A stretch of DNA of 64,000 bases from Schmidtea nova (lineage: Eukaryota). A model generated the notes under the pieces. The model ran no database searches and was not told where the DNA came from. It worked only from the letters and a program-made list of their open reading frames with translations. The stretch is from assembly GCA_044892505.1 (NCBI GenBank), contig CM097882.1, positions 66,092,001-66,156,000 of the forward strand. Direction: 5' to 3'. The position numbers were made by a program, and so were the translations under genes. Shown here one piece after another: positions 23,301 to 48,640 of this stretch (position 1 is the stretch's first letter; each line of letters begins with the position of its first letter).

Positions 23301-23718
23301 TTGTTTATATTATTTTTATTATCATTATCTTATTAGTATCTTAATCGCTGTTATTTTTGAGGGCATCCTTGTGGATACAGGATGACCCCCCTTTTTTATT
23401 TTTTATGTAATATTACTTAAAATAATATTAAAAATTAAAAATAGATAATTAAAATCAAAGAAAAACAAGTAAATCAATACCTATAGAAATTGGTAAAACT
23501 ATGGGAATTTAAAAAGAAAATTGACGGATGTGGTAAATGAAATCATGAAAAATAAGAAAATTGAAAATTAAGAAAACAGAGGATATATCGGTGGAAAAAT
23601 ACTTTTGGAATTTTTAGACTTTGTAATTACGTGAGTACAGGTTGATATTTACTGTTATATATAAGTCAATCACATAATAAACAGCCATCCTCGATATAAA
23701 AACAAACAATTTAACCCT
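20309..23718 (+). mobile_element. Non-autonomous Gypsy-type LTR element (Gag-protease only)
   Basis: Direct repeats 20309-20890 and 23297-23718, both cut by N gaps; the 3' copy lacks about 165 bp. PBS TGGTGTCAGAAG at 20914 (tRNA-Leu type). PPT aaagggggaag at about 23262, then tgtaaagg at 23276. Confidence 0.85.
21132..23048 (+). CDS. 638-aa Gag-protease fusion ending in an integrase C-terminal GPF motif; no RT, RNase H or integrase core
   Basis: CYFHNKFGEKAFKCTKPC knuckle; FLIDTGS; IIGADFL; KYEGPFKLL. Confidence 0.85.
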   Translation: MTNPMPNFFVSENGSLQAWLKVAKLTLSLSEITSSKLICSQILTAIPSHIHNEISDQIGEMFTKNNPFEKLCSILANQTNKMQIQEYFTNNRQKDNIQNNFPKPLKQNLEYVQTKIANLDSNEQISCQTSATKNNQTEKKILTDMAHKINAGTYPSINSTHDNKNKTSNHEQYEEENERTEFNETNKILSILISQLDKIATENKRFKLELKEIKEKNLKQYYYPNQTLYKLNWPNPNTRNQNQNFHNNKNKETGNRQKFWKPEIKLANQEFCYFHNKFGEKAFKCTKPCRYTEKNSEKLKSLPLVAPTFHETNTKKLETLPVVAHTFIDKNNAFMVQSNDAEFLIDTGSVISLLPHYLHKNSKNAEKHLTAANGTNIKTFGEHTLTLTINSKKYSWTFLIADVQQAIIGADFLAHYNLTVDCRNKTLTENTSTSKETVKTMATTISKIDIGVIQMGPTNNKSKQNLNHGPEINTLLEKVDKLIATVTFDEKANIKNNEQITTKNSENIENKLKGILKKRPNSENDGKTILTTDYLLIKKPCTKDSEDKYEGPFKLLEINKNVATIIKNNNKIRINIRRTKPFHYNPKPLCNISHNETQTKKKHIKFNNKNEIKNFDKNAIITRYKKLYSECLTQHNTT

Positions 23719-27560: not shown

Positions 27561-27614
27561 TACCACATGTTTTACTATAGTCTAATTGTATATTGCATTA
27601 AAGAAATAGTCAAA
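25991..27614 (+). repeat. 1624-bp direct repeat, copy A (copy B at 31560-33183)
   Basis: All piggyBac ORF fragments recur with identical translation at a constant offset of 5569. Both junctions were read directly. Confidence 0.95.
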
Positions 27615-30600: not shown

Positions 30601-31508
30601 TCACACTGCAAACCCCCAACTTGGTTCCCTCTCTTATGCATCCTAGGTGAGGACGCCATCGATTATCTAGAAATATCAAAATCTGAATTCATTAAAATGT
30701 TGATTAAAGCCCAAACATTTCATAAAGAAAGTCACTTTGTATCAATTGACCCTCCTGAAGATGACCTGGATAAAATGATGTGTGAATATTTACACATATA
30801 AAAAATCTCTATCTCCCAATCAATCCTATCTTCCTGAATCCAATCTCCTGCTCTTAGATTCACACCTGCTCAACATTTTCAATCTCCCAATCAATTGTTG
30901 ATCCTACTCACACAATTCCACAACATGTTCACCGAAACAAACTACTACCTCCTGCTCTAAGATTCGCACCTGCTCAATATTCTCAATCTCTCAATCAATA
31001 TTCACACCGATCCTCAATATTCACACCTGCTCAACATTTTCAATCTCCCAATCAATTGTTGATCCTACTCACACAATTCCACAACATGTTCACCGAAACA
31101 AACTACTACCTCCTGCTCTAAGATTCGCACCTGCTCAATATTCTCAATCTCTCAATCAATATTCACACCGATCCTCAATATTCACACCTGCTCAATATTC
31201 TCAATTTCCCAATCAATAGTCAATCCTACCCACACCATTCAACAACATGTTCTCCGAAAAATACTACTACCTCCTGCTCTAAGATTCACACCTGCTCAAT
31301 ATTCTCAATCTCTCAATCAATACTCTCCTCCTGATCCAACAATCCAGTGTCCCTAAACCAGACATTGGCTAGAAGTTTATGAAAATGCTAAAATAAGCTG
31401 GAACTAATGTCTCTGCCCTCAGGGGTGGGACTCGTTAGCCTGTCTCCTCGGAGCAGAAGTTTTTTTTTTAAATAAAATTTGTAGGCCCACTTCTCAGGGT
31501 GGGTCGCC

Positions 31509-31559
<51 letters not shown>
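27615..31559 (+). mobile_element. Poly(A)-tailed 3.9-kb insert between the two direct repeats (retroposed sequence?)
   Basis: Contains one long ORF, 162-bp tandem repeats (about 30860-31330), aataaa at about 31470 and about 50 A at 31512-31560 abutting repeat copy B. Confidence 0.65.
27631..30801 (+). CDS. 1056-aa orphan protein with Asn/Lys-rich N-terminus, STSTAP/STSTTL repeats and a duplicated globular domain
   Basis: Uninterrupted ORF with 18-bp coding repeats. YY.FY.P...KP.EIF.II.KTP..WDIFN occurs twice. No family recognised. Confidence 0.7.
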   Translation: MKSPKKIFDDTPAVNQCLVECLHIDIPSTGQKEDPDQAIILYKNNNLIFPSRTSSLQPLETMKKYNKTQNFSINIKLSLSNPNPNSTFVNTTDGTLNPNDHKIISQKSENLKSKKITESITKSEEFNSNLEIFTNKNFKNENSGSHHYFNNKNYHSNQETSNKSYSKEYHNKNLKNKNFNFENYEKYDNNTNYYKNTEEPYKKYQLKNYENNKNKIPKFENKEEYYNTNEMNTEDYIKIKKFNFLNDYYQKNRKYFKRLEKIPINRIIFEILKSKAFFENRENLFKLKANFRVPDNEESEKNFLPPCGGQKTRPPSADKQNVNIPATEKKELFGFEKEPRYRNIRKIKTNQSITPTKSTTTSIIPSTSMVPPTSSVPPNSIVPAISLVPSTSKDPSTSNASPTSNASSTSKTPSTSNNPSKPTDLRSSTAPTTSTNPSTSTKPSTSTAPSTSTAPSTSTAPTTSTAPSTSTNPSTSTAPSTSTAPSTSTAPSTSTEPSTPTAPLKSLPNINTTQITTPTVPNDIAKANLYYSFYKPSIQIKGKPDEIFHIIEKTPVNWDIFNQERLIKTEEIKNFNNSQIRVLVKEYASLLFSLNNIKQENLKLLQAANENFIVWKPILEKIGGIRDFIKIKNLQKEVIEDLFKKYHNFYTTPSTTPSTSTIPLTSTTNSKCTGPSTSTDLSTSTTLSTSTTLSTSTTLSTSTTLSTSTTLSTSTTLSTYSTPSTSTGPLTCTAPSTTTNPSTSNDPSTSTATPTTTDLSTSTNPSTYKQSNNIFIFGSTPSNPTNLSCNTNIHKYNTRLNTKIISLPDKEQTASYYRTYNPIPSEKRKPLEIFNIIHKTPIFWDIFNKNKKLTTKDICSMNEKTIEDLINHYIVFFSSPPLHLDKSKTFQVIHNDIYNWLPALELCGITDYLTLCNLSANDMNKLNFEYNNESTQSQKDLIEFAGESMFNTTQRPIEKIYASVSIIDLMYDISKLKNKMINNEEKRISISHCKPPTWFPLLCILGEDAIDYLEISKSEFIKMLIKAQTFHKESHFVSIDPPEDDLDKMMCEYLHI

Positions 31560-31563
<4 letters not shown>

Positions 31564-33183
31564 AGTTAGTGCGGGACAAAGATGCGCAACGAACTTTCCA
31601 TCGGTCGACACCATCCATTCCTTTGTTATAATTTATTTATCTCGGGATATTGAAATCAACCTTTTGCTTCTGAGCATTACACCACCTTTTCACTTTTCCC
31701 ACAGGATCTACATGATCAAAATTGGATTCAATAGTAATAACATTGTTATCCTTCCAATGTACAATTATAATTTCATTTTTTGTGTCAAATCGGTAATCAT
31801 ACTCAGCTCTAGGCTGTTTCTTCATTTTCTTCACATCTCTGAGTGGACATTTCTTTGTTCTATTTTCTCGTATTGTTCTAGTTGCTCTCTAGCCCGAATG
31901 TCGCAAATCATATAACAACTGATGGTTTGTAAAAAAGTTATTGAAGTACATGATATGTTCTTTTGGGACAATAGGTAACTTTTCCAGAAGAGATTTTACT
32001 ACTCTCGCACGGAGAGGATCAACAGAAAACTCTTTGGACTTACCGCAATAAACATCAAACGCGTAGCAGTTAGCCATCTGAACTTGTTGCAGCCCGATTT
32101 CGATTACCAAATCGTGTGGGTTTTCCCATAATAAATTGTTTGGCTGGATGATGGCCAAAGTATTTTATCAGGGACTCATCCACAGACATGAAAAACCTTC
32201 TTTTGACAAGAGATTCTCTGAAGAAGAATACACAACGGTCTGACTTTGAACATTTTATCATTCAAACTTTAAGCTTGAGTATTATCAAGAAAATGTAGGA
32301 TTCTTTTAATTTCTTGAAATCTGTTGCGTGGCATACAATTCGATACTAATGGAATGCCAAAATCTTCATCCAAACTCCAATAAGCATGTTCAGTAGGCAA
32401 GTTATGATAACCTATTAAGATTAATATTTCCAAAGATTTCTTCAAATATGCTTGATTAATTTCAAAATTATGTCTTTTATTTTGATTTGCGTACAAAATA
32501 CTGTTTTCAACAATCAGGTTCATTACACTTTCATCAAAAGATTTTCGAACAAGATAACAGGGTTGTAGTCTTTCATTGATTTTAAAAGACTTTTTTGTCT
32601 ATTCTGATAACATCGGTAATGTCATGGCTTGTACTGTATGAAGGCAAAGTTTTCATCCATACAGGTTCCTCACAATCATATTTTCTAGCTCGTTTCGCAG
32701 GTCTTACGTAATTAGAAAGAGGTATATCATCCTCGCCGTTTCGGCCTGAATACTCAAGATCGAGATAACGAGATATTACCTGGATAGTACATGGCGCATC
32801 TCTTCAAAGAGTTGAAGAGGTAACATCATCATCATTTCCTTCTTCTTCATCACTCAAAACAGCAAGATCTGGTGGAACGAAGAGAACATCGTACTCCTCA
32901 TTTTTATTATTATTATTATCATCAGCCATTATTGATTCGAGAGCTTCTTCTAATCCTAAATAGTTATTTTGACTTGTAAAGATGTAACGGAATGCCATTG
33001 TAAAAACTTTGGGAATGCTACAAAATATAAATAATTTTAGTACAGATCTGCCCATTGTACTCACTTGAGTACAGTGCAACAAAATGCAGCCTACTGCATT
33101 GTAATTTAAACAGATTGTAAAAATAATAATACCACATGTTTTACTATAGTCTAATTGTATATTGCATTAAAGAAATAGTCAAA
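31560..33183 (+). repeat. 1624-bp direct repeat, copy B (piggyBac pseudogene copy 2, minus strand)
   Basis: Matches 25991-27614. Confidence 0.95.
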
Positions 33184-33274: not shown

Positions 33275-35032
33275 TACCTGTATACACGTGCTTGCAAGAT
33301 AAAAAACAAACTGAAATTAATGACGGTTATCATTGCGTTGCCGCCATATTGATTTTTTCGTAGACTACTAGTGCCATCTATTGTTGAAATGGGTCACTAC
33401 TTTCAGGATAATCATCATAGAAAAACACGCCTTTAACAAGTGTACCCATATGAGTACAGGTTAAAGAAATTAAATACAAATAAATACAAATAGGATAAAA
33501 TAGAAAGAAAATGAATTTCCGATTACGAAGTAATAACTGAATCAGCAGGAGGCCTGCAGAATAGAAAAATCTAAAATCTAAATATGAAATTAACGAAAAA
33601 AATCAAAATAAAAGTACAATTTATTGTTTCATTAAGTGAATTATGATCCAGAAAGCAGGATATTGCGATCTATCAATCAAAAAAATAAATAAAGTAAAAA
33701 AAAATAAATAAAGTAAAATTCAAACTTACTTTGTAATTGGTCAACTGGCCAACTGGTCAACTGGTTAATTGGCCAAGCAGTAGAGGCTAAAATTGGTGAT
33801 TAGCAGAGGCCATCTCCGATTCTGATGAAGAGGTTTCTACCAGATGTTATGACCAGCGAATATCACAAATAAGTTCTTCTTAAAGGGAAGCGTAAAGTGA
33901 TTTAGTCAATTGGACATGTAGTACACGTAATGTAGAATCAAGGGAAAGCACTTTTAGCGATTGCAAGAAGAGGGCATGAGTGTGGCAGGGAATCTTCTGT
34001 GCTGTTCCAGACCGACCAACTTTGACTTGCAGGGATACGTCACGTCGAGTGTCTATGACCCAATAATTAAATAATTTTAATAGATGAAGAGCTCACAAGA
34101 AACCAAAGACTATGAACACATAAGGCAGATCACGGCTAAAGAGAAGTACATGCAACAGTGGAAGCTAATGAGGATGCTCAAAGTTCTACCGGCTTCATTT
34201 CTGCGCACTCTGGATATACAAATGCGAAAGTGGCATCACGGATTCCGATTATCAACCGAAAGAGGATATTCAAGTACTTACGCCAGGCTGCTGATCCTCG
34301 TCAAAGACGAGTAGCAGAGGCCGAAACGAGAAATTTACTGGGGATACATCCCACAGTCAGAATTCAAAGAAATCGGATTGACACCGGTTACGCCTACTCG
34401 ACCTCTCCGGATCTCTCAGGAGTGACAGATTGTGACAGTTTAGAATTAATTACTAATTAAATCTAAATCGATTTCATCATCTTTAAAAATTTTTGTTTAA
34501 ATAAGCAGTTTTTGATAAAAATACACATTTTAAAAACGCGTCTTATTTAATGTCGTAACAATGTCCTCACGAGTAAAAGAAAATGAAGCGGATATACGAA
34601 GACTCAAATTATAAGAAAAAAGACGACAAGATGAATTAGACAAAAAAAGACGACAAGACGAATTAGGAGAAAAAAGACGATAAGACAAATTAGAAGAAAA
34701 AAGACGACAAGATGAATTGGAAGAAAAAAGACAACAAGATGAATTAAGAGAAAAAAGAAGACTAGATGATAGAAAAGACAAGAAAGCCGAAACAGAAGAG
34801 AGGAAAAGACTAGACGAACTGGAAGACAGAAGACGACAAAACGAGATCGAGGAAAGACGACGTCAAGAAACATTTCAACTTGAATTGAAGAAGCTAGAGA
34901 TCGAGGAAAAGAAATCATTGCCAACAAACAGAAGAGAGAGTCAAAGCTGCATACAACAAAGCCCACAGATTCCAAAGCTCTTGCCATATAACTGTACAGA
35001 AAGGATCTAAGTCTACCTAGAAGGATTCGAGA

Positions 35033-36092
35033 TGTTGAGGTTCCAAATATTTGCTATTTGCAATCTCAACTTGTTATTGGGGTGATTCTTATATAAATAT
35101 CAAAAGCAAAGTTTGTTTTTCAAAAGTTTATTAATACAATAAAATTACTTTTTATATCGTTTACAATTTTCTACGAATAACTCAAATTCTTTATTACACA
35201 AATTTAAAAAGAAAAAGTCGTATCAAATCAATTCTTGCAATTGAACCTATTGGGTGACTGTTATGTAGTGCGTGCTATATTTAATTGTGGATCCAATGTT
35301 TCTGATCCGGGTTTTAATAAGTTATTCAAGATTGCCTTGAAAACTCAATTTGCGCTAATTTTAAATCTTGATTTTACACTAGATTTTAAAGCTAGGATTT
35401 TTTTGGGCGTTTTTACTGATTTTTTCTTTAGTTTATATAGTAAAATTTGGTATGGATAAATAATTTAATTTCCGGTCTGATATTAAAATATTATTAAATT
35501 TAGTTTTCAATTTATTCTATACTCTGCGATTAAAATAATTATATTTTAATTTCCTGTCTTGTCGTGATATTAAAATTTTCAATTTATTTATTCTGTGATA
35601 TAATTATATTTTAATTTCCTGCCTTGTCACGATATCAAAATTTCCAAATTATTTCGTATTCTGTGATATTAAAATATTATCCAGATTTAATTATTTTTAA
35701 ATAACTGAATTAAATTATTTTATTTATTGATCTGTTTGTTTTATATGTATATACAACTCATAAAATAATAAAATCAATAAAATCAAGATACACCTAAAAT
35801 AATAAAAGGAATAAAATCAAGATACACCTATTTTATATGTACATGCAAATCATAAACTACACATCAAGATATATTAAAAGAAAACAAATGTTTGTTGAGA
35901 AATGTCACAATAATAAAATGTCACAATCATATTAATTTTCTTGATGGGAGTTGCAATCTTTGTTGTGTGGCTTGGATTGGGATTCTGTGTATTGGGATTC
36001 CGCGTAAATGTTGATCCTATAGCTGTTAGGCCCTGTCCTATAATATTTATTTAGGACAAATGCTTGGATGGGCTTCCCTCGATCATCCAACA
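35033..36092 (-). repeat. 3' LTR (1060 bp)
   Basis: Matches 47581-48640 at a constant offset of 12548. No difference found by eye. Confidence 0.96.
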
Positions 36093-37902
36093 TTCCTCCC
36101 AGGGCCGTCAAGGTAATGTCCTCATTACCTTTTTCACTCAGGACCATTTCAATTTCTTTATCCTTTAATTTCATTATTGTTCTCTTGAATCCTTTCTTGA
36201 TTGCCAGATTTAGGGTATCATCTTCCTCAATTCGTCTTCCGAAATGGGTACATAGTTGTTTTTCCGTTATCTCTTTTTGGTCGGCACTTATAATGAAGCT
36301 AGGTTCTTCCTCCTCTTCTATTTCCATTTCAATGTCAGGTTCTGGTCCTAATTCGTCTTCTGCTTTTATTTTACTCTCCCTTTCTTTTGTGACGTCTTCT
36401 TCGTCGTCTTCCTCAACTGAAAAATACTCTTCGTCCGAATCTAAATCGCATATGTCTTCTCTTTCTTTGTATTTTTGTATTAGTTGCGGTTCGTTTTTGA
36501 TCATTATTTGATTTTCTGGTGGTCCTTCTTCTTTTGTAATCATTAGGTCGTCATCACCATCTTCATGTATTGTTTCTTCCATATCTGAATTTTCATCCAT
36601 TATTATACTTTCTTCTTCGCTTTCCTTCAACTCTTCCATACATGATTTTCTGTTTTGCATCTGGTATAGGTCTCCTTTCATTTCGATATCGTCTGTTATT
36701 GGTGTATCACTTTGTGACGATGTTGAAGCTGCTGAATTCCATTTTATTATAGGTTCCCATTTGTCTTCTACTATTCCATATATTACCTTTAATATTGTTG
36801 TTGTCTTTCTGGCAGAAAATGGCTCACTTTCTACTAATGCTTCATTCAGTCTCTTATCTTTGTACCATCTCTTATGGTATTTAATTACTTGGTAAGCTAA
36901 GTTAGATAGCTTAATTTTGAGTGGATCTACGTTTTTCACGAATGAGCACATAAATTTATCTCCGGCCATTTCTCTCATTCCTGCAATGTTGTCTAGACCA
37001 AATGTTAGCATTTTTAATTTATCTATCATATCAAATCCTATGATTATTTTTCCCCACAACAGCTCTCTAATATCCCATAGCGCCTGGTACTCATCTTCAT
37101 TTCCGACGATACTTTCTTTATTGACCATTGTTTTTTCTGTGCAGAAGTTTTTTATCTTCGTTCTTGGGGTTATCTTTTTGTTGTATATAATTTCACCGTT
37201 GTATTTTCTTATACATACTTCTACTGGTCGCTTGTTGTCATTTTTATCAATTGCAAATTTTGCATCCATGAACATAATTAGTTGGTGTCTCTCTTCTGTG
37301 GATAATTCATTGTGTGTGAAAGAGATTTTTTCATTTATCCAGCTTTGATCGTACCAAGGTTTTGAAGGGATTGGCGGCATTGATTGGAATGGATTTGATA
37401 TCAGAGGGATATAGAGTATCTCGATTCCTATGACACATGGTAAGTTGTTCATTTGGATTATGAGGTGATTAAAATCGTCTGGCATACTTCTGTTGTTTGT
37501 AATTGTTTTGATGATGATTGAACAATTACTTGTTGTGATTATTGGTACTTTATGTTGGCAAATTGATACCTCGGTTTTTGTCATGTGGAATAGGATTCTA
37601 TGTGGTACCTTTTTTCCTTCGATTACCGCTTTGTCGACATTAAGATGTTTTTCAAATGTGCCGATTAGGTCTTTTAATTTTGTTCGTCGAGCTTCATTAA
37701 ATTTGATAATGTGTAGTTCTCTTTCTTCAATTTCCACTTTCATATCATTTGGGATGCATACTTGGTTTGGGAAGCTTCTGATTGTGATTGGATTTCCATC
37801 GGTACATATTTTGTTTTGTAGGGTTTTGTAAAAGTTTAGAGGGTGTTTGTTGATCATAGCCACATAGTTCATAGATCGAGAATAATTTGGCTCTGATTGC
37901 AT
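35932..37902 (-). CDS. ORF2: accessory protein with degenerate DEDDh (REX4/ISG20-like) exonuclease fold, acidic tract and conserved C-terminal domain; overlaps the 3' LTR
   Basis: The frame is open from 38316, but MQSEPN (ATG at 37902) is the more plausible start. FMDAKF...EVCIRKYNGEIIYNKKITP...GKIIIGFDMIDKLKML...KLSNLAYQV...PFSARKT parallels LDCEM...YDxYVKP...GRILVGH...DL..L...SLK.LA...GHSSVEDA. Confidence 0.75.
   Translation of the reverse strand: MQSEPNYSRSMNYVAMINKHPLNFYKTLQNKICTDGNPITIRSFPNQVCIPNDMKVEIEERELHIIKFNEARRTKLKDLIGTFEKHLNVDKAVIEGKKVPHRILFHMTKTEVSICQHKVPIITTSNCSIIIKTITNNRSMPDDFNHLIIQMNNLPCVIGIEILYIPLISNPFQSMPPIPSKPWYDQSWINEKISFTHNELSTEERHQLIMFMDAKFAIDKNDNKRPVEVCIRKYNGEIIYNKKITPRTKIKNFCTEKTMVNKESIVGNEDEYQALWDIRELLWGKIIIGFDMIDKLKMLTFGLDNIAGMREMAGDKFMCSFVKNVDPLKIKLSNLAYQVIKYHKRWYKDKRLNEALVESEPFSARKTTTILKVIYGIVEDKWEPIIKWNSAASTSSQSDTPITDDIEMKGDLYQMQNRKSCMEELKESEEESIIMDENSDMEETIHEDGDDDLMITKEEGPPENQIMIKNEPQLIQKYKEREDICDLDSDEEYFSVEEDDEEDVTKERESKIKAEDELGPEPDIEMEIEEEEEPSFIISADQKEITEKQLCTHFGRRIEEDDTLNLAIKKGFKRTIMKLKDKEIEMVLSEKGNEDITLTALGGMLDDRGKPIQAFVLNKYYRTGPNSYRINIYAESQYTESQSKPHNKDCNSHQEN
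36093..36102 (-). promoter_or_regulatory. Polypurine tract of the 13.6-kb element
   Basis: Minus strand gggaggaa lies immediately before the 3' LTR TGTTGG, inside the ORF2 coding sequence. Confidence 0.8.
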
Positions 37903-38248
37903 TGTTAATTGAAGATACAAGAATCGGGATATTGATTGATAAGTTAGTAAACGATAAAACACTAAGAATATAGCTTGATAATGAGATCGAGATATGATTT
38001 TACGACTTGATTTGTGATTGGGTTGAAAATTGGAACGATTTGATTGGGAGTTGGTTTGATTGTTTGGATTGTGCTGAGGATTTGATGTAAAACTGGCTTT
38101 ATTGGGTTGTTTGCCAAATGGGTGACTTGTTTTTCTAAAAATAAAATGTAAATTTTTATGTTGAGAGCGTATTTCAGGTTTAACCTTATACGCTATTTTA
38201 TAGATACAGATATATGTGATTTTAATATATATTATTGACCAATTTAAC

Positions 38249-41200
38249 TTATACCAATGTAGACCTCGAATATTCACCTGGTATATATTTACCCAAATGG
38301 AAATGCCCTGGTACATTTCTGACCAGTTGGCTCCGATACCGCTGCCTTTTCCATTTGTACTTTTTATAAACTTGTACGCTAGTTATTAAAGCTAAAACTG
38401 CTAATGCTATTATTGATGTTGTGATGACATAAAAAGGCCAATGTGGATTTTTATCTTTTTTACGAAATGCTTGTAGTTCCTCTAAGTTATGTATCACTAT
38501 TGGTCTTCCTTGCCTTATTTTGATAGGTTCTTGTTTTTGTTTTTTGGCATTGTATTGTTTTTGGAGTTTGGCTATTCCAGTGCTTGTTGGTGTTTCGTTT
38601 GTATGTAGTGTGGTATTTAGTCTATTATTTGATGTCGTTGTTGTGCTTTTTGTTATGTTTTGGTTTTTTATTATATCCTTGGGTAATTGTTCTGTTTTTA
38701 TCTCTTTGCATCTCCATGTTGTTGTATCTGTGTTTCTCTGTATGCAGATTTTATATATTGTATTAGGTGTTAGTTTTGTGAAATTAATATAGTTTCCTCT
38801 TTCAATTTCGTTGGTTGTTCTGTCGTCCTTTCCTTTTATCATCTTTGGGCTTTTCCCATTCGTTGTTTGCATGTATAAATCAATTACTCCTCTATTTATG
38901 ATAAATGCTCTGACTTCGTTTGTTGATATTTTTATTAATACTCTGTCAAATTCTATTGTTTCGGTTGAGCCAACAATTGTTATGATTGTTAAGAAGATAG
39001 CTGATATTATTAGTTTGTTGTGAGATCTTAGATTATACTTGTGAGGTTTATCTATCGTGACCTCGGCTTCCGCCAACTTGCATCTGTTGACATGTACTAC
39101 TATTGGATCCTCGTTTTTATGCTTTTGTAAATGTAAATTCTCATTTATTACTTTTACTACTTCATATGGACCTTTATATGGTCTTGCTAATTTTGTTGTC
39201 TTTCCCTTTCCTACTTGTGGTGACATAAGTCTAACCTTATCACCTACTTTAAAGTTGTGTGGTTTACTATTTTTGTCGTAGTCGGCTTTGTATTGTTCTT
39301 GTCTATATTTGACCTTTAGATTGGCTACTTTATACACTTCTTGCAGTTTTTCCTGCATTAGTGTGACATAATCTGGTGCATCTAAATATTGTGATACTCG
39401 AGGTTCAAATATTGTATCTATTGGTGTTGCTGGTTCTCTTAAAAACATTAAATAATACGGCGAATACCCTGTTGTTTCGTTTGGAGTGATATTATGAATG
39501 TATGTGCATTGACTTATGTATTCGTCCCAATCATTTTGATTTTTTCCTACAAAAACAGCTAGTCTGCTTAGTAATGTCCCATTAAATCTTTCTACTAGTC
39601 CATCAGTTTGAGGGTGATACGCTGTTGTGTTGATCTTTTGCATGTTAAAAATATTAGCTACTCGTTTTATTAATTCACTAGTAAAATTTGTTCCTTTATC
39701 TGTTAATAATCTTTTGGGTGTGCCTATCTTGAAAATAATTTTTTCTATAAGCAATTTAGCAACTGTTTCTGCTGTTTCGTCTTTTGTTGGAAATGCTTCT
39801 GCCCATCTAGTAAAATAATCACTAAATACTAGTATATGTTTATTCCCATTAATTGTGGTAGGTAATTTACATAGAAAATCCATTGCACATAGTTCCATTG
39901 GTGATGTCGTTGCTGGAATGGGATGTAACGGCGCTTTTGTTTTTGTACCTGTATTTTTTCTTGTTGCACATATTGTACACGCGTTACACCATCTCTTAAC
40001 ATCTTTCTTTAATTCTTCCCAGTAATATTTTTGTAATAATCTACTTGCTGTCTTTCTAGATGATAAGTGACCTCCTAATGCTCCATCGTGATATTGTAGT
40101 AGGAGTATTTGTCTTAATTTCTGAGGTACTACTATTAATTGCTTACCGTTGAAATCTTCTATTACTACTAATTTCTTTGATATTTTATATTTTGAATTGT
40201 TTTCTTTTCTGATTTCATTCCTTATTCTATTGATCTCTGGGTCTTTCATCTGTTCCTCATATATATCTATTGGCTTTTCTGCTACTAGTGCAAATATTTC
40301 AAGTGCTCCTAATTCTGGTATTCTTGATAGTGCATCTGCGTTTTTATTTATTCTACCTGGTTTATATATAATTTTTAGGTGCATGTCTTGTATTTTCATT
40401 GCCCATTTAAGTAATCTACTTGATGTATCTTTATGTTTCCATAAGCCTTCTAATGGTTTATGGTCTGTTCTTATTATCACTTCAGTTCCGTAGATGTATG
40501 GTTTGAATTGTTTTAGGGCAAATACTATTGCGTAACATTCTTTTTCTATTGTTGAATACCTCAGCTGTGCTCCTTTTAATGTTTTACTGGCATATGCTAT
40601 TACGTAATCTTTCCCTTTCTCTTCTTCTTGGCCTAATACTGCTCCTACGGCTTTCCCGCTGGCATCCTTCATTACTATAAATTGTTTTTCGAAATTTGGG
40701 TATCTTAACACTGGTGCTGTTATCAATCTTTCTTTTAGTTTGTCGAATGCTTCTTGATGTTCTTTTGTCCATTTCTTTTGTATCTTGTTAACTTTATTGT
40801 TAATTTCTTGTACTATTAACACGTCTTTGCATTCTCCTTTTGTTTTAATTCCCTTTGTTAGTTCTATTATAGGTGTTGCTATCTTTGCATAATCTTGTAT
40901 GAATTTACGATAGTATCCTGTTAAGCCTAAAAACCCTTGTACTTGTTGTACTGTTTTTGGTATTGGGAATTTCTTTACAACTTCTATTTTTTCTGGATTT
41001 GGTTTTATCCCTTCTACTGTGACTATATGCCCTAAAAATAATGCCGAAGACTCTGCCCATTTACATTTAGTTGGTTTAATTTTTATCCTTGCTTTTCTTA
41101 GTCTCTCAAGTACGTTTGTTATATCTTTTAGATGTTCCTCGAATGTCTTTGATGATATTAATATGTCATCCATGTAAACTGCGCAGTGTTGTACATTTAC

Positions 41201-44200
41201 TAATATTGTGTTCATTAGACGTTGAAATGTAGCTGGCGCATTAGTTAATCCGAAGGGTAATCGTGTGTACTCATATAAACCATCCTCAATAACAAATGCT
41301 GTTTTTTCTGCATCCCCTTCTTCCATTTGAATTTGCATATACCCCTTATTCGCATCAATGACTGAAAAATACTTAGCATCCCTAAGTTTATCATATTGCT
41401 CTTGTGCTTTTGGGAATGGATATGAATCTTTTACTGTTACATCATTTAATTTACGATAGTCAATGCACATTCTTATTTCTCCGTCTTTCTTTTTGACGGG
41501 TACAATGGGTGATGCCCACTGTGAAAAACTTTGTTTTATTACACCTGCGTCTTTTAATTCTTTAATTTGTCGCTTTATCTCCTCTCTTAGTTTGTATGGT
41601 ACGCTATATGGTCTTTGTTTTATTGGTCTTGCATTGCCCGTATCTATTACATGTTTGATTATGTCAGTATCTCCTAAATCAAATTCATGTTTTGCAAAAA
41701 CATCGCTGTATTCATCTATTAGTGTCTGTAATTGTGCTTGTTGTGTTATTGTTAGGTATTTATTATTGATTTTCACTTTGTCGTATGATTTTATACTATT
41801 TGTCTTACTAGGTTCGACCACTCTTTTGCCGTTATCATTTATCACACTTGTCTCGCTGACTTCATACGTTTTCTCTAATTCACCTTTGAATAATTTTCCC
41901 AATTTCGTACCTTTGTGTATTTTAACATTACTTTTTTCATAATTTGCTATTCTCAATGGTATTATTCCCTTTCTCGGAATTACGCATTCATTGGTTAGCA
42001 TTATATTCTGATTTTGTATAATTGCCGTTTCTGGTTCAAAAATAAAAGTGTCCTCACTTTTGACGTTAACTTTTATGGGGATTATATGATCACACTCATA
42101 TTCTAATTCGAATGCTTCTAATGCAACAACTTCCGTGAACTTGGACTTATGTTTGATAGCTTTTCTTTTAATCGTGTTATCCGTTAAGTCTATGATGCAG
42201 TTATTCAGCTTGTTGAGTATATCGATCCCTAGTATACATATGCTATTGCATTCTTGTACTACTTTAAATATGTGGTGTATTACTTGTTCTGATGTTTCAA
42301 CTACTAATTCAATATCTCCTTTTAGTGGAATGTAGTGTGCTGATAGTGTTACTACTTTATCCGTTGTTTTCATAATATTTCTCTTTTGATCATCTGTCAG
42401 TTGATCTTCTCTAATTAAGGATGTTGCTGCTCCTGTGTCTACTAATGCATTTATGATTATATTGTTTATAATTATTCTAAGTCTTGGTCTTGCTTCGTTT
42501 GCTGCATCTAATCGTTCCATTGTTTCGACTTCTAAGCTATAACAACCATATATCTTTTTAGGTTCACAATGACAATTCTTGTTTTCTCTAGGAATTTTGA
42601 TTTCTATATTTTCTTGTAGCTCTTTTAGTTGTTCTCTTTGGTTTTCATATAGTCCTTGTTGTGGTACATTTCCTTCATGTGATATATGCGCTTTAATTAT
42701 TTCCTCATCGTTTTCATCATCTACCAGTAATTGCCTTTCTTCACTCCTTTGGACTTTTATTAAACGTATTTCCTTGTCGTGTTTCGCCGTAATAAGATAT
42801 TTAGCTATAAATGGGCACAAACATGCTAATAATTTATATGAATTTCCAAATACTTGTTTTAGCTGTCTCAGTGATACTAGAGAAGAACATATCATTTTTA
42901 GTAATGCAACCGTATAATATATACCTAAGATTGTAGAAAACATGTTTCCAAGGACTGCAAAGTATCCCCATATGCTATATAGTACTTTATATGCTACTTT
43001 TTTGAAGTATTCTTTTGATAATAACACATCAAAGTTGTAATTTCCTCCGTAACTTCCTTCGATAACTCTGTTTACCATTATTGAAAGTACTCTTTCTTTT
43101 TCGTTTGGAAATAGCATGTGTTTTCTTGCACTTTCTATAGCTTCTCTCGTATATATGCCATTACTGTCCATATCGTTGATTTCTTTAAACTCTAATCTTT
43201 TTTCTAGCTCTATGAGTTCTAATTTGAGTGGTTTCATTGCCTCCTTTCTATCCGACATAGATATCCACATTTCGTCATTTATTTTGTATAATGGGTCTAA
43301 TAGGTTAGTGCATTTGTCTATTTTTCTCGGTATATATGTTTTTTCTGTTAATATTCTAGTAATTGGTTGAAGGTATACCCTTTCTCCTTTATATATTACC
43401 GGTAATTCATTAGTGCACTGATTATTTGTTGCTAACGATACACTAACAGGTTTACATTGAAATGTCTGTATCACTTCTCCTACTATCCTTGCAAATGTTC
43501 CTTCTTCTGAGAAGATTATTGGTGCCATTAAATCTGGGTTTGTTACCGCCACTGCCATTTTTGTCCTCAATATTTCTCTGTTGAGTTTGCAATCGCTCAT
43601 AATTGTTGATTGATATACTTTATCTAATTGTACTAGTTGGTTATGATAGAAAAAATCGATTTTATTGTTGAAGTATGATGCAAGTTTGACGTCGAATTTA
43701 TTTACTTTTTGTTTTGCATCTTTGACTTCTTCTTTGCTTATGTATATCCCTTCATAATTAGTTTGTATTATTTCCTTACCACATTTTACACTTTTCCTTT
43801 TACTAACAAACCTCATTGCTTCGTTTTCAGATTCTGACATATATATTGTTGGTGTATCTTTTTCTTGTACAATTGTTGTTTTCCTTTTTTGATCTCTCAC
43901 CCTTTTTGAGTCTACTTCTGTGAACTGTTTTCCTTTGATTTCCCTAAATTTTAATGATTTTAATTTTGTTAACTGACAATCATATTTATCTATTTTGTAT
44001 ATTAGCATTGATTCTCCTGTATCGCAATAAGATTCTTCTAATGTACAAAATTTGTATATCATCATTTTCTTTGAGCTGCTGTCGAATGATGCTTTGAACT
44101 TTCTCAGTTCTACCATGTAGTGTCTCCTTACTACAACATTACTCAGTTTTTCGCCCCATATTGTATATTCTCCTCCTTCACAATATCCTCCTTTTGATGT

Positions 44201-47200
44201 CCATCCCACGACATTTACATCTTGTCTCATTTTTGCCCCTATCCTTGCTTCTAATTCTATTCCTTTATGACCGCTATATTTTACTTTTTTTGTTTTAAAT
44301 GCATCTTCACACTCTATTGGTGACAATATTACTGCTTCGGGTGTCCACGTAGGTTTTAACACTGTTCTTGCCCCAACATGACATATATATGCTTCCTCCT
44401 GATACTTTATTATGCACTCTTTGGCCTCTGTATGAATAAAGTCTGATTCTTGATAAACATGGAATATTTGAGGCTCTGACATGATTAATTTAGTTGGATT
44501 TGCTTCAGGGCAATTTTCAACATCTAACAGTGAGTATTTTTGTCCCCACTTTGGATTTTGACAATCATATGCTACCATTGCATTGCCTCCCTTGATTAAA
44601 TCTAATAACAAAGTGATAATGACTATTACTATGGAGGTTATCGATTTACTCTCTGTCTTTGGTTTTACTGTTGCTTTCTTTATTAATTGTTTTATTACCT
44701 CATCTGTATCACTCTCTTTATTCGTCGTATCTTTATCATATAATACTTTCCATCCTCCTTTCTTTTTTATCCATGGTATTGCCTCTACTTTCAATCTTTT
44801 AAACATCATTGTTGCTACTTTTTCTAATTGCTCTTTTGGATTTTCCTTTATGAGCTTTTTATATCTTGCGGCCAAGTATGCCATGGCCGTTATTATTTTA
44901 TCTTTATCTATCCCTGTATTAAACATGATTTTTAACACTGTTTTTTCATTTGCTTCCTCTGTAGCTAGTTCTTTAGTATCCTTTTTAATTAACATCATCC
45001 TTTCAGTTATATTTTCAATAAGTACTGTTGGCTTTGTTTCTGGAAATAGCTTAATATTCATTGCTTTTATTACTTCTTTTATTTTGTTTACGTCATTATT
45101 ATCGTCTTGATACTCTGGTTGTTCATGTTTATGTTGATTTGCAATCTCTCTTAATCGTTCTGCTGTCTTCCTATTCTCCGATTTTTCTATTATTTCTGAT
45201 TTTCGAGGTCTTCCTCTACCTCGTTTTGATGTTTCTGCATCTTTTGTTTTTGCTTCCTCAGCTATTCTTTCTATTGTTTCTTGTAAGTTACTATACTTTT
45301 CATCTATAGGTTTAAATATAATTTCTTCATCCATTACTGATTTCTTTGTTTCGCTAGGTGATTTATCCCATAGCCTAAATAATCTATCAAAATCGTTTTC
45401 TTCATTTATACTCAACTCAACTGACGGTACTGGCGTCATTATTTCATTGATCATTTGTTTTTCTACTGTGGCTACCACAATATTATCACTTACTGGGTTT
45501 ATCCCATAATCGATTAAGTACTCGTCACTTAATAATTCTATTCCGTTAAAATATAATTTTATTACATCTTTCTCTCCTATGGTTCCTGGCCATTTGGCTC
45601 TTACCATTCGTTTTAATTTGCTCACTTTAGTGCAAGTATGCATCTTTTGTTTAATACTAAAAAAATAATTATCATTTGATTCAATCGTTACATTTAGTGT
45701 TTCATGCAATTTTTCATTTTTTCTTATATATTCTCCATAACATTTCAACATCTCTTTTATTTCTATTTCTAATTCAAATACTCTCGTTATATTTTGTCTC
45801 TTTACCATCATTGGTATTAAATTTCTAAGTCTCTCTAAATCAATCCCATTAACCTGTATTTTATTGATTACTCTTAATGTTTCATTGTCATCAAACGGTT
45901 GCTTATGCAATACCTCTTTAAATTCCTCTATTAATTCTTTTTGTCTATTTTCTTCTGTAAGAAATATTTCATCTGCTTTTCTAATTTCCTTTAACTCATC
46001 ATTATCAATATCTACTTCATTTGTAAAGGTGCTAAATTCATTTATAGACATTTCAAGTTTTCTCTCAATAAGTCTTCCATATTGAGTTTTAAATTCTTTT
46101 AGTTCCTCTCTTAATATATTTATTTCTTTATTTGCTGATTCGAGCTCAGCACTATTTACTTGTTTTATCTCAGGCTCATTTTTAAATCTTACTCTTATTG
46201 GTGAATCTGCTCGTGGTTTATTACATACCTTTGCTAGGTGGCCATACTTTTGGCAATTATAACATTTTATTTGTCCATTGAAATTCACTTTATCTCTACC
46301 ATCATTATTATAAGTATTTCTCTTCACTGGGCTATCTTGCCTATTTCTCGAATTATCTCTATATCTATTATCTCTTCTATTATATTCGAAGCGACTATCT
46401 CTATTATTTTTATTATATCCACTGTAACTGTTTCTGTTATAACCAGAACGACTATCTCTAAAATTATCTCTGTTGTCTCTATCATTATCTCTATCAAAAC
46501 GATTGTCTCTAAAACTGTCTCTATTATTGTTTCTTTGATAACTATCTTTAAAATTATTTCTATTTCTATTATCGAAATTTTTATTTCCTGGACTACTAAA
46601 CCTTCCCCTGTTTTCAGGTGATTGGCTTCTATTAGGACTAAATTTTCTTCTATTATTGACAAAATTCAAGTACAATTGTTTCATTTCTTCCCAGGGAATA
46701 CTATCATCCTTATTTCTCAACTCAGGTTTTACCTCGGGTTGTTTTTCAACTTCTACAGCATCTACCTCTGGTTTAAATCTATCTCTTTGTATTGCTTCGA
46801 TACGTTTTGCCTTTTGAACTAACTCATTTAAGTCTTCATACTCAATTGTAATTAATGCTTTGTATAAATATTTTTGGATGCCGTTCCAAAACTGATCCTC
46901 AATTAATTTACTAGTGTGATCTCCGGCACCAAATGCCTTTTTTGCTAATTCTGTTATCGTGTATATATATTCACCTACTGATTCTCTGGCTCCTTGGTAT
47001 CTACTTCTAAATTTTTGAACATTTATTTTTTGTAAGTCTCTATCTATTACTATTTCTTTTCTAAGGTTTGTAACTAACTCTTGATAATTAATGCCTTTAC
47101 ATAATAAATTATTGTATGCTTGTAATGCGTATCCTTTTAAATATAATGGAATTCGTTGTTTTAATTCATTTGTTTTCCATCCGCAAGCCTCTGCATATTG

Positions 47201-47338
47201 TGCGATTTCAGCAAAAAAGTCGTCGAACTTTTCAGGGTCTCCTTTATATGATTCTATTGGTAGTGTTTTTATAAAATTATGACTATTTCCTATGATATCG
47301 TTATTACTGTTGTTACTACTACTTGTACTATTACTCAT
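38249..47338 (-). CDS. 3029-aa Gag-accessory-Env-Pol-membrane protein polyprotein
   Basis: Gag CA at the N-terminus. CYNCQKYGHLAKVC about 46222-46264. UBL about 45460-45700. AT-hook RGRGRPRK about 45201-45227. Bcl-2-like about 44740-45170. Signal about 44580-44645. Glycoprotein MVAYDC about 44578 to TM about 42790. LVDTGA about 42430. YMDD about 41170. RNase H DAS/EKE/TDH about 40300-40760. Integrase HHCC+DDE+GPY about 39100-40090. Second signal about 38967-39015. C-terminal TM about 38366-38435. Confidence 0.95.
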   Translation of the reverse strand: MSNSTSSSNNSNNDIIGNSHNFIKTLPIESYKGDPEKFDDFFAEIAQYAEACGWKTNELKQRIPLYLKGYALQAYNNLLCKGINYQELVTNLRKEIVIDRDLQKINVQKFRSRYQGARESVGEYIYTITELAKKAFGAGDHTSKLIEDQFWNGIQKYLYKALITIEYEDLNELVQKAKRIEAIQRDRFKPEVDAVEVEKQPEVKPELRNKDDSIPWEEMKQLYLNFVNNRRKFSPNRSQSPENRGRFSSPGNKNFDNRNRNNFKDSYQRNNNRDSFRDNRFDRDNDRDNRDNFRDSRSGYNRNSYSGYNKNNRDSRFEYNRRDNRYRDNSRNRQDSPVKRNTYNNDGRDKVNFNGQIKCYNCQKYGHLAKVCNKPRADSPIRVRFKNEPEIKQVNSAELESANKEINILREELKEFKTQYGRLIERKLEMSINEFSTFTNEVDIDNDELKEIRKADEIFLTEENRQKELIEEFKEVLHKQPFDDNETLRVINKIQVNGIDLERLRNLIPMMVKRQNITRVFELEIEIKEMLKCYGEYIRKNEKLHETLNVTIESNDNYFFSIKQKMHTCTKVSKLKRMVRAKWPGTIGEKDVIKLYFNGIELLSDEYLIDYGINPVSDNIVVATVEKQMINEIMTPVPSVELSINEENDFDRLFRLWDKSPSETKKSVMDEEIIFKPIDEKYSNLQETIERIAEEAKTKDAETSKRGRGRPRKSEIIEKSENRKTAERLREIANQHKHEQPEYQDDNNDVNKIKEVIKAMNIKLFPETKPTVLIENITERMMLIKKDTKELATEEANEKTVLKIMFNTGIDKDKIITAMAYLAARYKKLIKENPKEQLEKVATMMFKRLKVEAIPWIKKKGGWKVLYDKDTTNKESDTDEVIKQLIKKATVKPKTESKSITSIVIVIITLLLDLIKGGNAMVAYDCQNPKWGQKYSLLDVENCPEANPTKLIMSEPQIFHVYQESDFIHTEAKECIIKYQEEAYICHVGARTVLKPTWTPEAVILSPIECEDAFKTKKVKYSGHKGIELEARIGAKMRQDVNVVGWTSKGGYCEGGEYTIWGEKLSNVVVRRHYMVELRKFKASFDSSSKKMMIYKFCTLEESYCDTGESMLIYKIDKYDCQLTKLKSLKFREIKGKQFTEVDSKRVRDQKRKTTIVQEKDTPTIYMSESENEAMRFVSKRKSVKCGKEIIQTNYEGIYISKEEVKDAKQKVNKFDVKLASYFNNKIDFFYHNQLVQLDKVYQSTIMSDCKLNREILRTKMAVAVTNPDLMAPIIFSEEGTFARIVGEVIQTFQCKPVSVSLATNNQCTNELPVIYKGERVYLQPITRILTEKTYIPRKIDKCTNLLDPLYKINDEMWISMSDRKEAMKPLKLELIELEKRLEFKEINDMDSNGIYTREAIESARKHMLFPNEKERVLSIMVNRVIEGSYGGNYNFDVLLSKEYFKKVAYKVLYSIWGYFAVLGNMFSTILGIYYTVALLKMICSSLVSLRQLKQVFGNSYKLLACLCPFIAKYLITAKHDKEIRLIKVQRSEERQLLVDDENDEEIIKAHISHEGNVPQQGLYENQREQLKELQENIEIKIPRENKNCHCEPKKIYGCYSLEVETMERLDAANEARPRLRIIINNIIINALVDTGAATSLIREDQLTDDQKRNIMKTTDKVVTLSAHYIPLKGDIELVVETSEQVIHHIFKVVQECNSICILGIDILNKLNNCIIDLTDNTIKRKAIKHKSKFTEVVALEAFELEYECDHIIPIKVNVKSEDTFIFEPETAIIQNQNIMLTNECVIPRKGIIPLRIANYEKSNVKIHKGTKLGKLFKGELEKTYEVSETSVINDNGKRVVEPSKTNSIKSYDKVKINNKYLTITQQAQLQTLIDEYSDVFAKHEFDLGDTDIIKHVIDTGNARPIKQRPYSVPYKLREEIKRQIKELKDAGVIKQSFSQWASPIVPVKKKDGEIRMCIDYRKLNDVTVKDSYPFPKAQEQYDKLRDAKYFSVIDANKGYMQIQMEEGDAEKTAFVIEDGLYEYTRLPFGLTNAPATFQRLMNTILVNVQHCAVYMDDILISSKTFEEHLKDITNVLERLRKARIKIKPTKCKWAESSALFLGHIVTVEGIKPNPEKIEVVKKFPIPKTVQQVQGFLGLTGYYRKFIQDYAKIATPIIELTKGIKTKGECKDVLIVQEINNKVNKIQKKWTKEHQEAFDKLKERLITAPVLRYPNFEKQFIVMKDASGKAVGAVLGQEEEKGKDYVIAYASKTLKGAQLRYSTIEKECYAIVFALKQFKPYIYGTEVIIRTDHKPLEGLWKHKDTSSRLLKWAMKIQDMHLKIIYKPGRINKNADALSRIPELGALEIFALVAEKPIDIYEEQMKDPEINRIRNEIRKENNSKYKISKKLVVIEDFNGKQLIVVPQKLRQILLLQYHDGALGGHLSSRKTASRLLQKYYWEELKKDVKRWCNACTICATRKNTGTKTKAPLHPIPATTSPMELCAMDFLCKLPTTINGNKHILVFSDYFTRWAEAFPTKDETAETVAKLLIEKIIFKIGTPKRLLTDKGTNFTSELIKRVANIFNMQKINTTAYHPQTDGLVERFNGTLLSRLAVFVGKNQNDWDEYISQCTYIHNITPNETTGYSPYYLMFLREPATPIDTIFEPRVSQYLDAPDYVTLMQEKLQEVYKVANLKVKYRQEQYKADYDKNSKPHNFKVGDKVRLMSPQVGKGKTTKLARPYKGPYEVVKVINENLHLQKHKNEDPIVVHVNRCKLAEAEVTIDKPHKYNLRSHNKLIISAIFLTIITIVGSTETIEFDRVLIKISTNEVRAFIINRGVIDLYMQTTNGKSPKMIKGKDDRTTNEIERGNYINFTKLTPNTIYKICIQRNTDTTTWRCKEIKTEQLPKDIIKNQNITKSTTTTSNNRLNTTLHTNETPTSTGIAKLQKQYNAKKQKQEPIKIRQGRPIVIHNLEELQAFRKKDKNPHWPFYVITTSIIALAVLALITSVQVYKKYKWKRQRYRSQLVRNVPGHFHLGKYIPGEYSRSTLV

Positions 47339-47560
47339 GTTGTAGATTGTTCTATTTCTTAATTGATGTATTATTTCAGGTGCTGTATCTATGTTTATTT
47401 TATTAGCTTTTTTAATGGTTTTAGTTCTTTATATGTTTGTATATCTTTGAATTTCTACTTTGGTCAATAATATTTAGATAAATATATTTTCCCGATATAT
47501 ATTACAATATCCCTCTGATCGCAATTCCTATCCCCCAATTGATATTATGATATTTTATTG

Positions 47561-47578
47561 TCCCGGTTCGCGGCACCA
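47561..47578 (-). promoter_or_regulatory. Primer-binding site TGGTGCCGCGAACCGGGA
   Basis: 18 nt beginning TGG, 2 nt inside the 5' LTR end. It resembles tRNA-Phe/His type PBS; the tRNA was not assigned. Confidence 0.88.
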
Positions 47579-47580
47579 AA

Positions 47581-48640
47581 TGTTGAGGTTCCAAATATTT
47601 GCTATTTGCAATCTCAACTTGTTATTGGGGTGATTCTTATATAAATATCAAAAGCAAAGTTTGTTTTTCAAAAGTTTATTAATACAATAAAATTACTTTT
47701 TATATCGTTTACAATTTTCTACGAATAACTCAAATTCTTTATTACACAAATTTAAAAAGAAAAAGTCGTATCAAATCAATTCTTGCAATTGAACCTATTG
47801 GGTGACTGTTATGTAGTGCGTGCTATATTTAATTGTGGATCCAATGTTTCTGATCCGGGTTTTAATAAGTTATTCAAGATTGCCTTGAAAACTCAATTTG
47901 CGCTAATTTTAAATCTTGATTTTACACTAGATTTTAAAGCTAGGATTTTTTTGGGCGTTTTTACTGATTTTTTCTTTAGTTTATATAGTAAAATTTGGTA
48001 TGGATAAATAATTTAATTTCCGGTCTGATATTAAAATATTATTAAATTTAGTTTTCAATTTATTCTATACTCTGCGATTAAAATAATTATATTTTAATTT
48101 CCTGTCTTGTCGTGATATTAAAATTTTCAATTTATTTATTCTGTGATATAATTATATTTTAATTTCCTGCCTTGTCACGATATCAAAATTTCCAAATTAT
48201 TTCGTATTCTGTGATATTAAAATATTATCCAGATTTAATTATTTTTAAATAACTGAATTAAATTATTTTATTTATTGATCTGTTTGTTTTATATGTATAT
48301 ACAACTCATAAAATAATAAAATCAATAAAATCAAGATACACCTAAAATAATAAAAGGAATAAAATCAAGATACACCTATTTTATATGTACATGCAAATCA
48401 TAAACTACACATCAAGATATATTAAAAGAAAACAAATGTTTGTTGAGAAATGTCACAATAATAAAATGTCACAATCATATTAATTTTCTTGATGGGAGTT
48501 GCAATCTTTGTTGTGTGGCTTGGATTGGGATTCTGTGTATTGGGATTCCGCGTAAATGTTGATCCTATAGCTGTTAGGCCCTGTCCTATAATATTTATTT
48601 AGGACAAATGCTTGGATGGGCTTCCCTCGATCATCCAACA
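47581..48640 (-). repeat. 5' LTR (1060 bp)
   Basis: Followed on the minus strand by the PBS and on the plus strand by TSD GAGA. Confidence 0.96.

Follow-up and report, generated by a model that had tools for sequence, protein, structure and literature searches.

A complete LTR retroelement in the stretch of Schmidtea nova DNA analysed here (the window, 64,000 nucleotides) encodes a polyprotein that does not end with the integrase. Instead, it continues in frame into a C-terminal module that is maintained by selection and that is predicted to be a second type I surface protein in addition to the viral fusion glycoprotein. The module could well be an attachment or adhesion partner of this fusogen, an assignment that we hold tentatively.

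A Ty3/gypsy element with Env between Gag and Pol

The element occupies 35033-48640 on the minus strand (13.6 kb), and this whole region is free of N-masked stretches. Its two LTRs (1,060 bp each) are identical at 1060 of 1060 positions, a 4-bp target duplication (GAGA) flanks it, and the element is young. The order PR-RT-RH-IN, the TG...CA LTRs and the target-site duplication place it among the Ty3/gypsy LTR retroelements. Along ORF1, Pfam profiles matched in the order CCHC, Bcl-2-like, Monjiviricetes fusion glycoprotein, protease, RT, RNase H and integrase (Table 1). The Bcl-2-like match was under the curated cut-off in the window copy and above it in some other copies. The PF24664 match spans aa 934-1579 of the polyprotein and has hydrophobic flanks on both sides, a signal and a TM; with this fusion glycoprotein between gag and pol, the element is a GAG-ENV-POL errantivirus. 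Its Env is labelled class III/gB here after a passage on chuvirus-like env in PMC13524379, not after its fold.

Table 1. Features of the element in window coordinates, with the evidence for each
Feature	Position	Strand	Evidence
5' LTR (TG...CA)	47581..48640	-	1060/1060 vs 3' LTR; GAGA duplication
Primer-binding-site-like sequence, TGG start, 2 nt past the LTR	47561..47578	-	sequence
ORF1, 3,059-aa frame, first Met at aa 31: Gag-Bcl2-Env-PR-RT-RH-IN-surface module	38249..47428	-	ORF list, translation, Pfam
Gag with CCHC knuckle	46169..47338	-	zf-CCHC E 0.0013; Retrotrans_gag found in sister family C
Bcl-2-like domain	44750..44947	-	PF00452 E 2.8e-5
Internal signal-like segment 1, ahead of Env	44579..44641	-	hydrophobicity
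Viral fusion glycoprotein (Env), TM ~aa 1492-1518	42869..44578	-	PF24664 Monjiviricetes_fusion E 7.5e-88
Pol: protease, RT, RNase H, integrase with GPY motif	39044..42496	-	Pfam RVP, RVT_1, RT_RNaseH, Integrase_H2C2, rve
Internal signal-like segment 2, aa 2804-2820	38969..39019	-	hydrophobicity; dN/dS ~0.1 over aa 2796-2820; family B ends A-N-A
Predicted FN3-type beta-sandwich, aa 2821-2916	38681..38968	-	AlphaFold2 pLDDT 80, seven strands; Foldseek and VIA; dN/dS 0.37
Thr-rich stalk, length variable	38534..38680	-	dN/dS 0.7-1.0, in-frame indels; none in family B
Membrane-proximal segment	38438..38533	-	motif common with family B; short helix in low-confidence model
Predicted transmembrane helix, aa 2998-3021	38366..38437	-	hydrophobicity, insertion score, model
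Basic cytoplasmic tail, end S-T-L-V, candidate class I PDZ type	38252..38365	-	71% identity to family B; C-termini tally
ORF2, 816 aa stop to stop, true start probably ~aa 161-171; ISG20-like DEDDh exonuclease, acidic tail	35932..38382	-	profile and motifs
3' LTR	35033..36092	-	identical to 5' LTR

Layout of the post-integrase module

The module comprises the C-terminal 256 aa of the polyprotein, in frame with pol on the minus strand, and no stop codon separates it from the integrase in the window copy. Behind the GPY motif at residue 2753, a hydrophobic segment opens with LIISAIF at residue 2806 (nt 39013; Kyte-Doolittle 19-mer peak 1.88). The FN3-like motif stretch NFTKLTPNTIYKICI lies at residue 2882 (nt 38785), and N-glycosylation sequons are present at 2882 (NFT), 2924 (NIT), 2938 (NTT) and 2944 (NET). 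The module TM starts at residue 2999, and its Kyte-Doolittle peak of 2.23 is the highest in the whole polyprotein. The basic stretch KKYKWKRQR follows at residue 3022, and the stop codon is at 38249-38251. All the motifs that the original prediction had named after GPY, that is, the signal-like segment, the FN3-like motif, the stalk with its sequons, the TM and KKYKWKRQR, were located at the places it gave.

Membrane insertion was scored on an approximate, position-weighted biological insertion scale made for this analysis, which is distinct from SignalP. The module segments scored 0.3 and -1.2, the Env signal 0.5 and the Env TM 2.0, and the best segment within PR-RT-RH-IN scored 6.3. The two hydrophobic segments of the module resemble the signal and TM of Env and nothing in Gag or Pol. 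The type I membrane architecture proposed earlier is thus supported by hydrophobicity and by the computed insertion scores; the predicted layout consists of a signal-like segment, one TM and a basic cytosolic flank. It had also been proposed that the module occupies the usual place of env. It does lie after the integrase, but the true env is found between gag and pol, and a further ORF follows the module. Antisense or other-frame coding over the module was considered and set aside, there being no plus-strand ORF of >=120 aa in this region.

Predicted fold of the ectodomain

An FN3/Ig-like fold, which the original prediction had proposed as a test of itself, is supported by structure prediction. 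Folding of the whole module from its single sequence gave a poor model (pLDDT 52), which still matched FN3/Ig folds. For aa 2821-2916, we supplied AlphaFold2 with a 12-row alignment of family A, to which the window element belongs, and the related family B. The resulting model has seven strands (pLDDT 80, pTM 0.72), and its structural matches were mostly FN3 domains. The top rows in Foldseek were FN3 domains of NCAM2, contactin and sDscam (best E 2.3e-3), with no match at E<=0.001. The best match in VIA-align was sDscam FNIII1 (Z 8.2, rmsd 2.8, 76 aligned), a middling score of a kind that the tool warns is common. It was followed by the carbohydrate-binding module CBM56 (Z 7.8) and IFNAR2 (Z 7.7), and other Ig-like folds fell within 1 Z. 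Cytokine receptors and adhesion molecules are among the structural neighbours; a viral structure library yielded no viral glycoprotein at E<=0.001 and no specific match.

At the sequence level, the Pfam fn3 profile stayed below its curated cut-off, with no match in the window copy and 11.5 bits against 25 in copy L036 (best E 0.36). Families A and C draw the same Atlas clusters of single-pass FN3 proteins, including FNDC5 and FNDC9 (scores 0.85-0.90, which serve as leads only). FNDC5/irisin and FNDC9, near-top Atlas matches for the module, likewise consist of a signal, one FN3 domain, a linker, a TM and a short tail; the irisin structure compared with the module model gave a TM-score of 0.57 and Foldseek rank 42, and there is no alignable sequence similarity. 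The Leu-x-Pro-x-Thr-x-Tyr stretch of the module matches the FN3 E-F strand motif. In a strict form, L-x-P-[DNE]-T-x-[YH], it occurs in 6 of the 9 post-GPY stretches compared below and is absent from the 20,014 residues upstream, where the pattern was chosen after seeing the sequences and neither P0003/P0004 nor families A/B are independent of each other. Judging from the model matches and the motif, the domain is likely FN3, and an Ig-like sandwich is the more certain assignment.

Copies and selection

A DNA search gave 457 candidate places, of which 40 were scored, all at 97-100% identity. In a protein search, 150 of 610 candidates were scored and gave 160 matches, which fall into subfamilies of ~99, ~92 and ~75% identity. 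The element is present in at least 150 copies in this genome, and many of them have frames of 3,050-3,080 aa; many intact, near-identical copies are a further feature of GAG-ENV-POL errantiviruses. Of 30 copies fetched, the window copy among them, 29 have an uninterrupted frame between GPY and the tail.

We calculated dN/dS between subfamilies by the pairwise Nei-Gojobori method. Against the 75% subfamily, dN/dS was 0.015 for the integrase, 0.017 for RT-RH and 0.03 for the Env ectodomain. In the module the values were higher: 0.11 (signal 2), 0.37 (FN3), 0.88 (stalk), 0.46 (TM) and 0.25 (tail). For FN3, dN was below dS (Fisher P=0.006; pooled P about 4e-5). Nonsynonymous and synonymous differences (Nd/Sd) numbered 21/14 in FN3 versus 3/24 in the Env ectodomain (P=8e-5) and 7/91 in RT-RH. 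These results show purifying selection on the signal, FN3, TM and tail, with a near-neutral stalk; it is the module that varies and the fusogen that stays constant. The analysis showed no site class with dN/dS above 1 in the module. Indels between subfamilies are all in frame and located in the stalk and in the linker behind it.

The Thr-rich stalk of the original prediction did not hold up as a conserved feature: family B has none, and within family A it is near-neutral and variable in length. The same applies to glycosylation, as the three stalk sequons are specific to the window subfamily; copies L031 and L036 retain NFT and one other. Between copies L069 and L031, the dS of Env was 0.075 against 0.38 for RT. 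Because Env dS is the lower of the two, the subfamilies may have exchanged env recently.

Related elements carry divergent modules

We compared nine related Env-Pol polyproteins, namely families A to D of this genome and P0003-P0007, the five polyproteins that an Env-protease query returned from outside this genome among 5,169 candidates. P0007 is labelled as a bacterial MAG and probably reflects contamination. The proposal that sister elements would carry the module was borne out: a signal and a TM follow the integrase in 7/9 (families A, B and C, P0003, P0004, P0005 and P0007).

Family B (2,992 aa) is 82% identical to family A in RT, 85% in IN, 72-74% in Env and 31% in the module. Its module has a signal ending A-N-A, the FN3 motif, no Thr stalk, a TM and a near-identical basic tail (71% identity over 28 aligned residues, versus 32% for FN3). 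In family C (3,393-3,401 aa; RT 49% and IN 53% identical to family A), the signal is followed by a beta-rich ectodomain of 340 aa that carries a variant motif and then by a strong TM, and the tail ends E-T-F-V; BLAST found no similarity between the modules of families C and A. Family D is a 3,232-aa open frame with at least 13 copies among the matches listed. It shares the signal with family C (hhalign E 3e-9), which is the only module part common to both. Its ectodomain is unrelated and without the FN3 motif, its end is E-S-R-V, and its TM is broken by three arginines in 3/3 copies read (L107:3787-4794; insertion score 4.4). P0003, P0004, P0005 and P0007 have a signal, the FN3 motif, a linker or stalk, a TM and a basic flank. 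P0006 has Env and Pol, but the 357 aa that follow its GPY contain no module; the sequence may be incomplete. The full module is thus not universal, being missing from P0006 and altered in family D.

Each of P0003-P0006 has three aspartic-protease domains, of which one comes just behind the Env TM and another right after the integrase; the post-integrase protease precedes signal 2 in P0003-P0005. C2H2 fingers lie between the first two protease domains in three of P0003-P0006.

Across lineages the ectodomains range from ~150 to 340 aa, and the module architecture is retained down to ~50% RT identity. In an RT tree (midpoint-rooted, with two unrelated elements of this genome outside), the lineages with the module span the whole group, and for this reason the module is probably old in it. 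Profile-profile FN3 scores against the distant lineages were weak, with 2, 2, 20 and 0 of 100 shuffles reaching the score for family C, P0003/4, P0005 and P0007, respectively, and direct sequence homology between distant ectodomains appears weak. Homologues of the module were found in 0/733 candidates of 1,665-5,301 aa and in 0/7,331 of 500-2,000 aa. A search of 1.84 billion representative sequences gave no homologue (its 2 matches were both unrelated repeat proteins), no match was found in PDB sequences, and Pfam matched no domain in these last 256 aa. These blank searches reflect fast divergence and do not prove absence. An alignment of Env found no related loci in metagenome, viral and prokaryote contigs.

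A candidate PDZ ligand at the C-terminus

A class I PDZ ligand is a C-terminal S/T-x-V/L/I, and the S-T-L-V end of the window polyprotein fits this pattern. We examined the C-termini of 64 open frames from all fetched loci of families A-D, a tally that includes a few copies fetched twice. S/T-x-V, seen in families A, C and D, was the end of 58, T-x-C of 4, and 2 ended otherwise; as background, S/T-x-V accounts for 0.6% of 3-mers in the polyprotein. All four families of this genome end S/T-x-V/C, and P0003, P0004, P0005 and P0007 have no PDZ-type end. The tail, which is the most conserved part of the module versus family B, carries a candidate class I PDZ motif. Overlap with ORF2 was rejected as the source of this conservation, since tail dS is 0.25-0.55 and families B, C and D have no such overlap. 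A precedent for a scaffold-binding tail is described in a passage of PMC3395148, in which the tail of HTLV-1 Env binds Dlg1.

Comparison with known elements

The chassis, a Burro-like GAG-ENV-POL element, is already published. In the section of Arkhipova and Yushenova (PMC6431247) on Burro/GYPSM1, the giant gypsy-like elements of planarians, one polyprotein likewise combines Gag and a BCL2-like motif with a fusion glycoprotein of mononegavirus-like type, which is placed in frame between gag and pol. The window element has this Gag-BCL2-Env-Pol order in one frame, but not the giant ORF1 of ~5,000 aa: Burro is described with up to 25 kb of internal sequence and an ORF1 of 4,873-5,140 aa, against 13.6 kb and 3,059 aa here. 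MATH, BIR, ankyrin and dUTPase domains are given as Burro cargo, whereas Pfam profiles, the only ones used, reported none of these in the window polyprotein at E<=0.1; the two elements were compared by description only. Nothing after the integrase is described in that section on Burro.

The GAG-ENV-POL errantiviruses with HSV/gB-type env of Chary and Hayashi (PMC13524379) share the order, the env type and the multi-copy intact state with the window element, and that paper reports them in Nematoda, Bryozoa and Platyhelminthes, six of the elements being from S. mediterranea. Its main text contains 'fibronectin' and 'accessory' 0 times, and its post-integrase discussion there deals with chromodomains only. 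Atlas virus, a nematode element with phlebovirus-like Gn-Gc, is likewise a retroelement with two glycoproteins, but Gn-Gc is one viral cassette; here the surface proteins flank Pol, and the second has a predicted cellular-type FN3 fold. As described in PMC11952523, sORF2 of Drosophila MDG1-group elements is a small TM accessory protein, but it is a separate ORF and replaces Env. The rotifer element Vesta has TM ORF3s and a DEDDy nuclease downstream of pol as separate ORFs, whereas ORF2 here is ISG20-like DEDDh; PMC5408684, which describes Vesta, has 0 occurrences of 'fibronectin'. We found no report of a post-integrase FN3 membrane module in the open-access literature searched, including the main text of PMC13524379 and the Burro section of PMC6431247, and the module may be new.

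Possible roles of the module

In the current view, retroviruses and errantiviruses rely on a single env gene for the proteins with which they enter cells. In herpesviruses (gD/gB) and paramyxoviruses (attachment protein/F), a variable binding protein is paired with a conserved fusogen. The module and its fusogen would resemble such pairs by analogy only, with no sequence or specific fold link. The alternating topology of the polyprotein, the release of the module, its display at the surface and its function are inferred as follows. The polyprotein would thread the ER membrane in-out-in-out-in: Gag, Bcl-2, Pol and the tail would be cytosolic, Env (after signal 1) and FN3 with the stalk (after signal 2) would be luminal, and the Env TM and the module TM would return the chain to the cytosol. 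Signal peptidase would free the N-terminus of the module, and the viral protease would separate the integrase from the signal remnant; extra proteases at membrane junctions, as in P0003-P0006, are expected if membrane-tethered junctions are cut. The FN3 domain would bind a host surface molecule and membrane fusion would be left to the fusogen; the basic tail, together with its PDZ-type end, may direct the module to budding sites or cell contacts.

The original prediction had raised attachment in partnership with the fusogen, or receptor interference. We favour the attachment or adhesion role because the module is in one chain with Env, its predicted fold is of the adhesion type and sits on a variable stalk, and its sequence changes whereas that of the fusogen is invariant. 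Several class III fusogens, such as rhabdovirus G and baculovirus GP64, attach and fuse alone, which counts against a separate attachment protein, and a fixed structural partnership with the conserved fusogen is not obvious because of the wide range of ectodomain sizes. The lack of a module in P0006, the altered ectodomain and TM of family D, the middling fold scores, the absence of a site class with dN/dS above 1, and the PDZ-type end missing from P0003, P0004, P0005 and P0007 also weigh against the attachment role. A bolder form of the attachment role is conceivable, and we are more doubtful of it. It would be a two-component entry machine made from unrelated viral and captured parts: ahead of Pol a conserved fusogen, and after Pol an FN3 attachment protein that was captured, evolves fast and has a PDZ-binding tail. 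Both would be released from the same polyprotein, and the machine would steer transfer from soma to chosen stem or germ cells. If a separate binding protein of cellular fold is indeed used, attachment and fusion were acquired independently in a reverse-transcribing element, and this would explain how a nearly invariant fusogen serves elements in changing hosts. It also makes the route of such elements into heritable cells a testable question. Planarian BURRO1 is expressed in differentiated tissue upon PIWI loss, according to PMC8532177.

The module could instead be a receptor- or adhesion-like protein that the element captured and that works on the carrier cell, as a decoy, as a modulator of signalling or polarity via the tail, or as an interference factor that blocks re-entry. 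We consider this somewhat unlikely, and so too its corollary that the module is further cargo beside Bcl-2 and the ISG20-like nuclease. The presence of these two domains in the same element and the conserved tail, with its recurrent PDZ-type end, bring it close to the attachment role, and the receptor and adhesion neighbours of the fold and the replaceable ectodomains between families also agree with it. On the other hand, neither the 1.84 billion representatives nor the two polyprotein/protein searches contained a host donor, the fn3 matches in host genes of this genome did not include the module frames, and being in one chain with Env and Pol would suit a particle component better than a regulator. 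An improbable account is that the module is mainly a membrane tether, in which signal 2 and the TM hold the C-terminus of Pol and the ectodomain is a mere spacer. If signal peptidase cuts Gag off Env-Pol, Pol would need membrane anchors for packaging; conservation is higher in signal 2 than in the ectodomain, and this signal is the sole part common to families C and D, and the extra proteases of P0003-P0006 lie at both membrane junctions. However, a spacer would not retain the FN3 motif in 6/9 lineages or a dN/dS of 0.37, and Pol is already tethered by the Env TM.

Production of the module alone, from a spliced or internally started RNA, would make its fusion to the integrase incidental. Some such route must be used by the downstream ORF2, but no stop lies between the integrase and the signal in 7/7 lineages with the module and in family D, and the window copy has no Met between GPY and signal 2, so that we regard this explanation as very improbable. 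Least credible of all is a decaying passenger or chance read-through without function. A stalk dN/dS near 1 and the lost or damaged module of P0006 and family D would fit it, but the selection tests given above largely refute it, and only in-frame indels separate the subfamilies while the architecture persists at ~50% RT identity.

ORF2 and other features of the window

A profile of five ORF2 copies matched ISG20L2 (E 2.8e-12) and ISG20 (E 4.3e-9). The acidic residues of ExoI-III are intact in families C and D and partly lost in family A, where ORF2 is catalytically degenerate yet retained. ORF2 diverges fast (~49% between subfamilies with integrases 99% alike). Near its start, at 37961-38004, contigs of runs X2 and X3 (kind unspecified) skip 42 nt with CT..AC ends, equal to GT..AG on the minus strand, and a short overhang. 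At 44579-44947 (-), the Env signal comes after the Bcl-2-like domain, and once cleaved it could serve as a Bcl-2-style C-terminal membrane anchor.

Elsewhere in this genome, a 399-aa BIR-domain ORF was found at ~150 scored places (loci L110-L113), beside ORFs of 1,040-1,070 aa and 480-530 aa. In the two copies examined, neither RT nor Env lies within ~10 kb. This ORF family is another mobile element with an apoptosis inhibitor. The 16 loci sampled for an env-less comparison proved to be a single family with the integrase before RT.

The window element itself sits inside a decayed LTR element (34400-35032 and 48641-52500, +) whose integrase is upstream of RT, an order that we take to be Gmr1-like. 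At 25986-31854, a direct-repeat pair (99% alike) surrounds a 1,058-aa ORF (27625-30801), which contains 18-nt tandem repeats and has no Pfam match. Another direct-repeat pair, at 20309-23718, surrounds a 641-aa ORF with gag and protease only (21123-23048), and this unit is probably a non-autonomous LTR element. A 615-aa hAT transposase ORF with a BED finger lies at 12130-13977 (-), and a perfect palindrome with 171-nt arms and zero spacer is present at 17286-17627.
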